DNA of 64,000 bases from Candidatus Heimdallarchaeum endolithica (lineage in GTDB: Archaea; Asgardarchaeota; Heimdallarchaeia; Heimdallarchaeales; Heimdallarchaeaceae), in the NCBI GenBank assembly GCA_021513715.1, contig CP084167.1, positions 2,496,001-2,560,000 on the forward strand, written 5' to 3'. The notes under the pieces were generated by a model. That model was given only the letters and a program-made list of their open reading frames with translations, was not told the origin of the DNA and searched no databases. Positions 15,498 to 24,313 of the stretch are shown here, one piece after another. Position numbers and translations under genes: made by a program. Position 1 is the stretch's first letter, and each line of letters opens with the position of its first letter.

Positions 15498-16751
15498 TTA
15501 ACTTTTAAATTGTAAAGAATGATGGTATGCTTCTTTTTCTGTTTCTTGAAGAATAGAGCTATAACCTTTTTCTAAATAATCCTGAATAATCGAAAGAACT
15601 GATTTTGATATGGGAAGTTTAACACTGTTATTACTTTCAAGTATTTCTTCTACACTCACTTTAAGAGCCTCAATATAAAGAGCAGCAGAATAAAGTTCTT
15701 TGATAAAGGTAAAATTCTTATGCATAATGAATCCTTTTAGATGAGATATTTTCAGTAGAATCTCTGATAAAATTAAATTAACTTTATTTGTCTTCTCTGG
15801 AATATATCGGATTGGAGAATAACCAAGTTTCATCTCATAATTATATCGAAAAGCTTTAACTCGGGGAAGAACTAACCCTAATCTTTTGAATACTTTTTTG
15901 TCGAAATTTCCATATTTGTCATTGTTTCCGTAAAGCTCTAGATATTTGGCTACTAAATGAGGATAGTGTTTTCTAAGGGTGTCAATAAATTCGTTTTTAT
16001 TTCTCCCTGGCTTAAGAGTGAGACCCCACGTGATAACATATTCCGCGTTGACCTTTTTTGCACTACGAAAAATATTTTTGATGTTTTCTGTTGTATCTCC
16101 AATAAATGGTAAACAAGGATAGAAATAAACGCCAGAATGTATTCCTTCTTTACGTAACTGAGATATAGCTTGAAAACGATCCTCTGAAGAACTAGCCCGA
16201 GGTTCGAAAATCTTGCGAACTGAATCATCCGCGAGAGTGATAGTGAAATTAACACTAGCATAAGTCTGTTCATTAATAGCTTTAAGTAAGTCAAGATCAC
16301 GAAGAACGAGAGTGCTTTTTGTGAGAATGAAGACTGGTAATTCATAATCACATATGATTTGGAGAAGTTTACGAGTAAGTTGAAGTTCTTTTTCTGCTGG
16401 TTGATAAACATCGCAAACTCCTCCACCCACAAAAATAACGAATTTAGAAGGAGAAGGCATTTGAATTCGCTCAACTGTAGCATCTAAATAGTTGAGTAAT
16501 GAGTGAGATGAATTAGAAGAAAAAAATCCTCTTTTTTTGAGATATTTCTCCAAGAGCTCTGGAGCATTAACCTTAACTTTGATTCGATTAGCAAAATCTT
16601 CATGCATATAATAGGATTCAGCTTTACCGTCACAATATTTGCAATCGTGCCAACAACCCTGATAGGGATTAAGGTAAACTTTAGCCCAAGAGAAAAAAGA
16701 AGGTGTTACTTCTTTGATCAACGATTTAGCACGAATACGTTCAATGATCAT
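15498..16751 (-). CDS. Radical SAM protein (SplB/Rv2578c-like)
   Basis: NPYQGCWHDCKYC, DVYQPAE, ILTKS, FEPRASS. Confidence 0.85.
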   Translation of the reverse strand: MIIERIRAKSLIKEVTPSFFSWAKVYLNPYQGCWHDCKYCDGKAESYYMHEDFANRIKVKVNAPELLEKYLKKRGFFSSNSSHSLLNYLDATVERIQMPSPSKFVIFVGGGVCDVYQPAEKELQLTRKLLQIICDYELPVFILTKSTLVLRDLDLLKAINEQTYASVNFTITLADDSVRKIFEPRASSSEDRFQAISQLRKEGIHSGVYFYPCLPFIGDTTENIKNIFRSAKKVNAEYVITWGLTLKPGRNKNEFIDTLRKHYPHLVAKYLELYGNNDKYGNFDKKVFKRLGLVLPRVKAFRYNYEMKLGYSPIRYIPEKTNKVNLILSEILLKISHLKGFIMHKNFTFIKELYSAALYIEALKVSVEEILESNNSVKLPISKSVLSIIQDYLEKGYSSILQETEKEAYHHSLQFKS

Positions 16752-16853
16752 TGTTTTCCCAATTAATCAAATAGAGTTTTTTTTTATTTATAAAGATAGT
16801 TAGGTTGATAGATTATCTCCTTTAGATGAAAAAAAAGACATAGAATTAAAATA

Positions 16854-17924
16854 TTAAAACGATAAGGAGAAAAAATCATTGTTATTAAGTTTTGAATGTA
16901 ATAGGTAGCTTTTCCATTCAAGTTTACATGGGCAAGAAGGTAAATCCTGAAGAATGCTAGGATCTTGAGAAAGGGTGAAATCTTTGAGAGCTTGAACGAT
17001 AGCAGAGTCACAAGAACCACAGTTGTGAGCTCCTCTCTTTTTACCTCCTGCAACAGGGTCACAAATGATTCTTAAATTTGGATAGAGAGTAGAAAGTTCC
17101 TGACAGATATGAACAAGAGACCATAAGTAGGGAGGACGGTAAAAATTTTTTTCAAAGAGTGAAGAAAGATAAGTACCACGCTGAATGTTTATGGCATTAA
17201 TTGAAACTGTATCTACCCCTAAAGAAACAACTTGTTTAACACTGTTGAAAATATCTAATATAGAATCAAATTCTGAAACGAAAGGAGGTTTAAAAAGGAG
17301 ATAAGCTTTAATTTTTGCTCCAAAAGAAAATACGCGTTTTGTAGCACGTTCAAAATCTTCCCAAAAGAAGCCTTTATTTATAGAATCACGAAGAATAGCA
17401 TTGTTTGCACTTTCTAATCCTATAGCGATCTCAACTTTAGCAATATCAAAGTGATCACGGAGAAGTGTTAGCTTTTCTTCTGTAACATATGAAGGTCGAG
17501 ACTCTAGGACTAACTCTTTAATACTTGATGAATAAGGTTGAAGTTCATGAAGGATAGAAATTAGAACTTGTTTTGGGACTTCGAGAGAATCAAGAATGCT
17601 ACCACTAGTAAATAGTTTTATAGAATAAGAGAGGGACGGATCAATTAAAGAGGATAATTTAGAAGAAAAATCAGAGAGCATCTCTGAAAAATCTGGTTTT
17701 TGAGGGTTATCATAAAGATAACCGCAAATTGAACAACCTCCACTACGAGAAAGAGCCCAAGAACAACCTCTTGTAGGAAGAATAAAGACAATAGCTTTCG
17801 CCGGGCCAGTACGAAGACGATGATCTTCAACCCATGCAACAAGACGACGAGAAGTAGAACGCTTGGAAAGGGCAGATTGGCGGTAACTGTAGATTATAGA
17901 ACTAAAAGAAGGGTTTATTTTCAT
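16854..17924 (-). CDS. Archaeosine biosynthesis radical SAM protein RaSEA
   Basis: TRGCSWA...GGCSICGY, IKLFTSGS, YLLFKPPF, RGAHNCGSCD; overlaps the arcS stop. Confidence 0.9.
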   Translation of the reverse strand: MKINPSFSSIIYSYRQSALSKRSTSRRLVAWVEDHRLRTGPAKAIVFILPTRGCSWALSRSGGCSICGYLYDNPQKPDFSEMLSDFSSKLSSLIDPSLSYSIKLFTSGSILDSLEVPKQVLISILHELQPYSSSIKELVLESRPSYVTEEKLTLLRDHFDIAKVEIAIGLESANNAILRDSINKGFFWEDFERATKRVFSFGAKIKAYLLFKPPFVSEFDSILDIFNSVKQVVSLGVDTVSINAINIQRGTYLSSLFEKNFYRPPYLWSLVHICQELSTLYPNLRIICDPVAGGKKRGAHNCGSCDSAIVQALKDFTLSQDPSILQDLPSCPCKLEWKSYLLHSKLNNNDFFSLSF

Positions 17925-23482: not shown

Positions 23483-23485
23483 TTT

Positions 23486-24271
23486 TTATTCTCCTATTTC
23501 TGTTATCTTTATTTTGGGTTGATTCTCTTTTATTTTATCTATCAAAAACCTTTTTGCTTCTGCAACTATTTTTTCTCCCTCTTCTCCAGAATATGAAAAA
23601 TGAATTATTATTCCTTTTCTTTCTCCGAACTGGGGGTGAGATTTAATGTACAGTTTTTTAAATTTCTTTTTTGTTTGATTAATATAAGGTGCTATCTCAC
23701 TTTCTCTACAGTTTTCTACTATTATTTTACATTCTGTTATGAGAATTTTTATTTTAGACGATAGGTAAGGGTGAATAGCCGTTGTGTATATAGTTTTCAT
23801 CTCCGTTGGGACACCAGGCAAACAGAATATCTCTGTTTTCTTATATTTTATTAAACATCCTGGCGCTGCTCCCGCACTATTGTTTAGTATTTTTCCTCCT
23901 TCTGGTATTAACGCCATTTTTCTTCTCTCTTCACTCATTTCTAATCCATACTTTTCATAATGCTCTTTTATTAACTCTAGCGCTTCTTTGTTTTCTATTA
24001 GTCTCTTTCCTGTTACTTTTGATATAACTTCCATTTGTATATCATCATATGTTGGACCCAATCCACCTGTGACAATCAATATTTCTGGTTCTCTCTCTAT
24101 GACTTCTTTAATGCACTCGCTTGCTAGTTTTAGTTCATCCCTTACACTAGTTATTCTTCTTACTTCTATTCCTAATCTTGTTAGCTGTTCTCCAAGGTAA
24201 GTTGCGTTTGTATTAACAGTAATTCCCATTAGCAGTTCATTTCCTAAACAAACAATCTCCGCTGTAACCAT
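23486..24271 (-). CDS. CinA/molybdopterin-binding domain protein
   Basis: EIVCLGNELLMG..VNTNA, TGGLGPTYDD, LPGVPTEM. Confidence 0.9.
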   Translation of the reverse strand: MVTAEIVCLGNELLMGITVNTNATYLGEQLTRLGIEVRRITSVRDELKLASECIKEVIEREPEILIVTGGLGPTYDDIQMEVISKVTGKRLIENKEALELIKEHYEKYGLEMSEERRKMALIPEGGKILNNSAGAAPGCLIKYKKTEIFCLPGVPTEMKTIYTTAIHPYLSSKIKILITECKIIVENCRESEIAPYINQTKKKFKKLYIKSHPQFGERKGIIIHFSYSGEEGEKIVAEAKRFLIDKIKENQPKIKITEIGE

Positions 24272-24313
24272 TTTTTTTCCTTCTTTACATTTTTCTTTAT
24301 ATTTTTCCAATTA

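Follow-up and report, generated by a model that had tools for sequence, protein, structure and literature searches.

The window analysed here is a 64,000-nucleotide stretch of the Candidatus Heimdallarchaeum endolithica genome, a single contig of 3,326,783 bases that terminates in tRNA-Gly(CCC). It contains two convergent tRNA-Lys genes. The tRNA-Lys(CUU) gene (20104..20211, plus strand) has a 31-nt T-loop intron, which is missing in related strains (joint 20160-20192), while the tRNA-Lys(UUU) gene (21282..21424, minus strand) has two introns of 31 and 34 nt and is inverted in orientation compared to Ca. Heimdallarchaeum aukensis. Because of these introns both genes were missed by ARAGORN, which accepted them only once the introns were removed. 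T-loop introns overlooked by standard scans occur in Lys, Ala and Thr tRNAs (genome 1989157, 2073011, 2168076 and 2394084). The genes are separated by a 1-kb spacer (20250..21250, GC 27%) with one ORF (20504-20824) for which the family search returned no match. The spacer is species-specific DNA, as it is missing from H. aukensis. On the left, three minus-strand genes read away from the tRNAs: a radical SAM gene (15498..16751), RaSEA (16854..17924; TIGR01210 above cut-off, 96% identity to H. aukensis RaSEA) and ArcS (17921..19849). On the right, an N6/N4 DNA methylase (21663..22712, plus strand) also reads away, and a GPN-loop GTPase (22703..23482), a CinA-like gene (23486..24310) and a polyprenyl synthase (24314..25390), all on the minus strand, read toward the tRNAs. 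Gene calls are longest-ORF calls, and the identities given to ArcS, RaSEA, the methylase, the GPN GTPase and CinA in a first-pass annotation proved correct.

The first-pass annotation had described a mirror-symmetric inversion of strand composition at this locus, from A/G-rich to T/C-rich across a neutral spacer, and the measurements bear this out. In the left arm (15498..20103) the A/G richness of the plus strand grows toward the tRNAs, with a purine fraction of 0.48 at 15.5 kb and 0.74 at 19.5-20.0 kb. The tRNA-Lys(CUU) gene forms the left edge of the centre, the spacer has a purine fraction of 0.47, and the right arm (21425..25390) is T/C-rich, with purine fractions of 0.32-0.42 over 21.5-25.0 kb, and has faded by ~25.5 kb. 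Purine skew at four-fold sites, corrected for gene strand, amounts to +0.55 on the left and -0.54 on the right (z=14.1), and a distance-weighted score (z=16.1) places the locus within the top four of the 47 peaks of the genome. The intergenic null has a mean of 0.005 and sd of 0.094, compared to a value of ~0.5 at the locus. An archaeal SRP RNA elsewhere in the window (54484-54791) has flanks without mirror skew.

The skew ignores gene direction, as had been claimed. The away-reading RaSEA (-0.52), ArcS (-0.60) and methylase (-0.59) genes lie in the 1-2nd percentile of the genome for four-fold purine skew and the toward-reading GPN GTPase (+0.53) and CinA-like (+0.42) genes in the 98-99th. The away-reading radical SAM gene has a skew of -0.33, and the toward-reading polyprenyl synthase, in the tail of the right arm, one of +0.19. 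The codon bias noticed earlier is likewise present, with 35 CGN against 3 AGR arginine codons in ArcS and no CGN codon in the GPN GTPase and CinA genes. Besides synonymous sites, first and second codon positions are shifted too; purines occupy codon position 1 at 0.55 in away-reading genes, 0.71 in toward-reading genes and 0.65 in the background. The ArcS protein is altered alongside the skew, its composition having moved to Ser/Phe/Leu/Pro, with 18 Lys compared to 42-56 and 113 Ser compared to 52-78 in neutral orthologues. The skew is strong enough to rewrite proteins beside centres.

Orthologues show that the skew belongs to the position and not to the gene. H. aukensis ArcS has a skew of -0.58, and in a further genus in which tRNA-Lys abuts ArcS it is -0.74; orthologues in family members that have no adjacent centre are near 0. 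These values support the proposal that a fixed site imposes strand-asymmetric substitution, and the codon bias does not recur in orthologues at unrelated loci, which would have spoken against it. Horizontal acquisition of genes with foreign codons is rejected, since ArcS-RaSEA is found family-wide and the skew tracks position. In H. aukensis the orthologous tRNA-Lys genes are arranged in tandem, ~140 bases apart, and display the same skew (z=15.6); convergence is therefore irrelevant and is rejected as the cause. The centre at the tRNA-Lys pair is real, but it does not require a convergent arrangement and is not unique. An artefact is also rejected, as H. aukensis has the centres too and independent metagenome contigs lie along both arms. 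Introns are not the determinant, because some intron-less tRNAs are strong and some intron-bearing ones are flat.

A scan of the genome yielded 47 peaks at z >= 6, two of which are mid-array artefacts from CRISPR gaps, and all have the polarity of the tRNA-Lys locus. A centre is a point-centred mirror bias in which the strand whose 5'-3' direction points away from the centre becomes T/C-rich. Other stable-RNA loci share the effect: zones of 1.5 kb around stable-RNA genes and CRISPR edges make up 4% of the genome and hold 20 of the 47 peaks, and 17 of the 26 strongest. Around strong tRNAs the away strand at four-fold sites has 0.73 T and 0.12 A, compared to 0.45 and 0.41 in the background. The arms are equally strong upstream and downstream of tRNAs (0.25 vs 0.23), regardless of tRNA direction or replichore, so an effect solely upstream of tRNA genes, one of the mechanisms first considered, is not tenable. 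The decay length of 3.1 kb agrees with the fading over 3-5 kb originally estimated, and decay is visible even within single long genes. Centre strength correlates with codon demand (rho 0.45, or 0.54 leaving out one flat block that includes RNA polymerase genes). Among the flat loci are isolated rare C34 tRNAs, tRNA-Asp, elongator Met and Ser(GGA) tRNAs and SRP RNA. Intragenic centres are present in secY, IleRS, EF2, both thermosome genes and actin. The switch in secY is sharp: 86 of 87 informative sites share one direction and the following 35 have the opposite one. The secY and IleRS centres, the two tested in H. aukensis, are at the same places there. Inspection by eye revealed no common motif at the intragenic switches, and no dependence of the skew on sequence context was found. 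Some one-armed peaks, including those at tRNA-Gln and at a truncated tRNA-Asn, are arms that insertions have moved.

Several further features were recorded along the genome. At L075 (genome 2206700-2207500) and L076 (~2437500), giant genes of mobile elements have a strong two-armed centre at the 3' end, without an Rfam match. The regions at 1984-2017 kb and 2252-2272 kb, contiguous in H. aukensis, contain RNA polymerase genes and ten tRNAs; they have no centres and mostly full divergence. Around 50 copies of a 5-base A/G repeat directly follow the 23S rRNA gene (genome 2131010-2131260), and on the minus strand two genes resembling 5S rRNA score below the Rfam cut-off (~2471140-2471283 and 2829750-2829934), 5S rRNA having been reported as not predictable (PMC8813620). 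At four-fold sites genome-wide, A:T to T:A transversions equal A:T to G:C transitions in frequency.

A replication origin or fork-fusion site had been among the initial candidates, together with the remark that no ORB motif or cdc6 gene is nearby. The remark holds: a pattern scan of the genome detected no ORB boxes at the tRNA-Lys locus, with ORB-like sites elsewhere (genome 147881, 2034031, 2044839 and 2161537), and the nearest of the three cdc6 genes is ~237 kb away. All three cdc6 loci are flat and none is a centre. No informative repeats were found within 19.8-21.7 kb. The weak replichore skew of the genome is of the G/T type and switches near 2.1-2.2 Mb, not at 2.52 Mb, leaving the locus ~0.35 Mb from the switch, and there is no keto-skew flip at 10-40 kb around isolated centres. 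A single terminus or dif site opposite the origin fails since the 47 peaks are of one polarity. Lacking a nearby ORB or cdc6 and a long-range skew flip, the tRNA-Lys locus is not a canonical origin or terminus, and the candidate is not supported as a unique or long-range site. The ORB-like boxes at 2034031, 2044839 and 2161537, near the replichore switch, mark a candidate canonical origin; one ORB-like box lies just upstream of a 1723-codon gene that probably encodes the PolD large subunit. An earlier skew analysis in the literature gave no sign of bidirectional replication in Heimdallarchaeia (PMC11291895).

Comparison with H. aukensis provides a second line of evidence. Divergence at two-fold sites is 0.117 near centres compared to 0.173 overall (0 of 2000 shifts reached 0.117) and 0.19 at flat tRNAs. 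The drop is patchy, from near 0 to full, and initiator Met and Leu-UAA/Val-UAC are strong centres yet fully divergent. Such patchiness suggests recent exchange rather than better repair, and a lower mutation rate near centres is weakened as an explanation, the drop being gone once matched on the local clock. Divergence edges are enriched at centres (p about 0.01, two genomes compared). In IleRS (L061:2283-5441) the 3' half is 17-36% divergent and the 5' half 1-3%, with the drop occurring within ~300 nt of the skew switch; the gene is a mosaic with its junction at the switch. Furthermore, in a local-clock-matched, reversible model without an outgroup, A>T and G>T on the away strand are raised 1.6-3.4x and T>A and C>A lowered to 0.5-0.75x. 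This two-sided change is the pattern that a conversion-like bias would leave. Finally, in all six multicopy IS families composition shifts monotonically from purine to pyrimidine, a gradient that stops at the element borders and is absent from 777 single-copy genes and from the IS flanks. Copy-to-copy exchange starting anywhere within the element predicts this shape, and confinement is as expected for a homology-limited process.

Among the sampled Asgard genomes, the purine-type pattern is strong only in the genus Heimdallarchaeum and at tRNA-Lys(UUU) of genome G005, with weak traces in other members of the family. Two genomes of another family (G010 and G012; L101-L110 and L161-L170) have a tRNA-centred mirror skew of the G/T type. 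Most other sampled genomes are flat, with few tRNAs per genome. NucS was not found in the family of G010 and G012; loss of NucS is nevertheless a weak explanation for the G/T variant, as G034 has no NucS match yet is flat, and G021 and G043 have NucS. No description of such skew was found in the literature searched, and the paper on Ca. H. endolithica PR6 makes no mention of it (PMC8813620). The tRNA-Lys locus is a strong example of a real, genus-wide process.

Taken together, the patchy divergence, junction enrichment, substitution rates and IS gradients favour polarised recombinational tracts as the source of the arms. With about even confidence, we regard the tRNA-Lys locus as one of several dozen fixed sites of recurrent homologous recombination or break repair that would proceed outward both ways over ~3 kb. 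Repeated breakage and repair, proposed at the outset, thus fits best, although raw divergence near centres is lower and not higher. The away-running strand would be either the one that is resected and then resynthesised or the one donated in heteroduplex. T/C could then be fixed by a polymerase that misinserts pyrimidines into the remade strand, or by unequal repair of pyrimidine-pyrimidine and purine-purine mismatches; both predict the same bases. Busy tRNA genes may supply the trigger by breaking or by being attacked by integrases, or tRNA genes may serve as conserved anchors for inter-strain exchange. The genome has genes for NurA, NucS, MutS and a Y-family polymerase. The published specificity of EndoMS (PMC4838380) fits the A>T and C>T changes of the toward strand but not G>C and the mixed A>G. 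Against recombination, low divergence is also explicable by lower mutation, the scaling of skew with codon demand is also compatible with transcription, and eleven occupied intein sites are almost flat.

Short-range initiation or restart, in which bidirectional synthesis from the centres uses a different polymerase for the first ~3 kb or exposes the away strand to purine damage, is compatible in geometry. The G/T-rich away strand in the two other-family genomes is the usual leading-strand signature, and the strong centres are concentrated around the weak replichore switch (~2.1-2.2 Mb). It is nonetheless unlikely: the keto flip is absent around isolated centres, the local signature (C over G) is contrary to that of the replichores, and each unrelated IS element would need its own origin, while IS skew increases toward the end. 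Origin skew jumps, as at bacterial and archaeal oriC or human CpG islands, where the asymmetry is bidirectional (PMC2817419), likewise change polarity at a fixed point, which is frequently a strong promoter region. However, they run across replichores or as far as 1 Mb and belong to the G/T type, whereas the Heimdallarchaeum centres fade in 3-5 kb, are purine-type, occur ~47 times and lie away from cdc6 loci.

Read-through and divergent transcription from strong promoters, with the non-template strand exposed and the template strand repaired, would account for the tie to tRNA demand and the flat rare C34 tRNAs, for centres in EF2, both thermosome genes and actin, and for the slight polarity shared by coding strands genome-wide (-0.056). 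Like known transcription-associated asymmetry, the skew is stronger at many highly used genes. Yet the uniform sense-strand skew expected along all highly transcribed units is not seen: the ribosomal protein operon (+0.11), RNA polymerase genes, SRP RNA, tRNA-Asp and elongator Met are flat, and the signal decays inside genes and has a mirror arm upstream. Upstream antisense transcription would have to match downstream read-through, and saturating switches would be required within secY and IleRS, making this explanation decidedly unlikely. Selection could favour polarised sequence, for example to give outward transcripts that are rich in U and terminate, or to guide a DNA translocase by composition, and would raise rates one way and lower them the other, as observed. 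It is very improbable, given that there is no context dependence, away-reading genes would terminate their own transcripts, the base spectrum varies between lineages and selfish IS elements carry the gradient.

In yeast, GC skew is known to reverse at recombination hot spots (PMC8276760). Skew at meiotic double-strand-break hot spots resembles the centres in being point-centred, kb-scale, mirror-symmetric and independent of gene direction, and a reversal at the point is found here as well. Mouse hot spots, the subject of work by Smagulova et al. in 2011, are reportedly enriched in purines on the 5' side of the centre, which matches the polarity in Heimdallarchaeum. In contrast to the meiotic case, Heimdallarchaeum is a prokaryote without meiosis, its centres are anchored at tRNA and conserved genes, and the amplitude is near-saturating, with proteins rewritten. 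GC-biased gene conversion is likewise a recombination-linked fixation bias able to override protein selection, but here GC content is hardly altered and the bias of purine versus pyrimidine is tied to strand and side. The centres thus appear to work more like meiotic hot-spot skew reversal than like origin skew, a likeness and not a classification as hot spots. The wider reading, that these are stable, site-fixed recombination hot spots at tRNA and conserved genes whose strand-polarised, purine-biased conversion or repair in 3-kb tracts rewrites proteins, as a prokaryotic counterpart of meiotic hot-spot footprints, is offered tentatively, as possible but short of probable.

Heimdallarchaeum is a vent archaeon and a close relative of the eukaryote ancestor. 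If the hot-spot reading is true, a meiotic-hot-spot-like footprint would exist in a lineage near eukaryotes. Orphan arms mark past insertion points of mobile elements. Marker genes beside tRNAs carry a position-dependent compositional bias that, because it alters amino acids, could distort Asgard-eukaryote trees. The centres would locate, at base resolution, the sites at which recombination, repair or local DNA synthesis begins in an uncultured Asgard archaeon.
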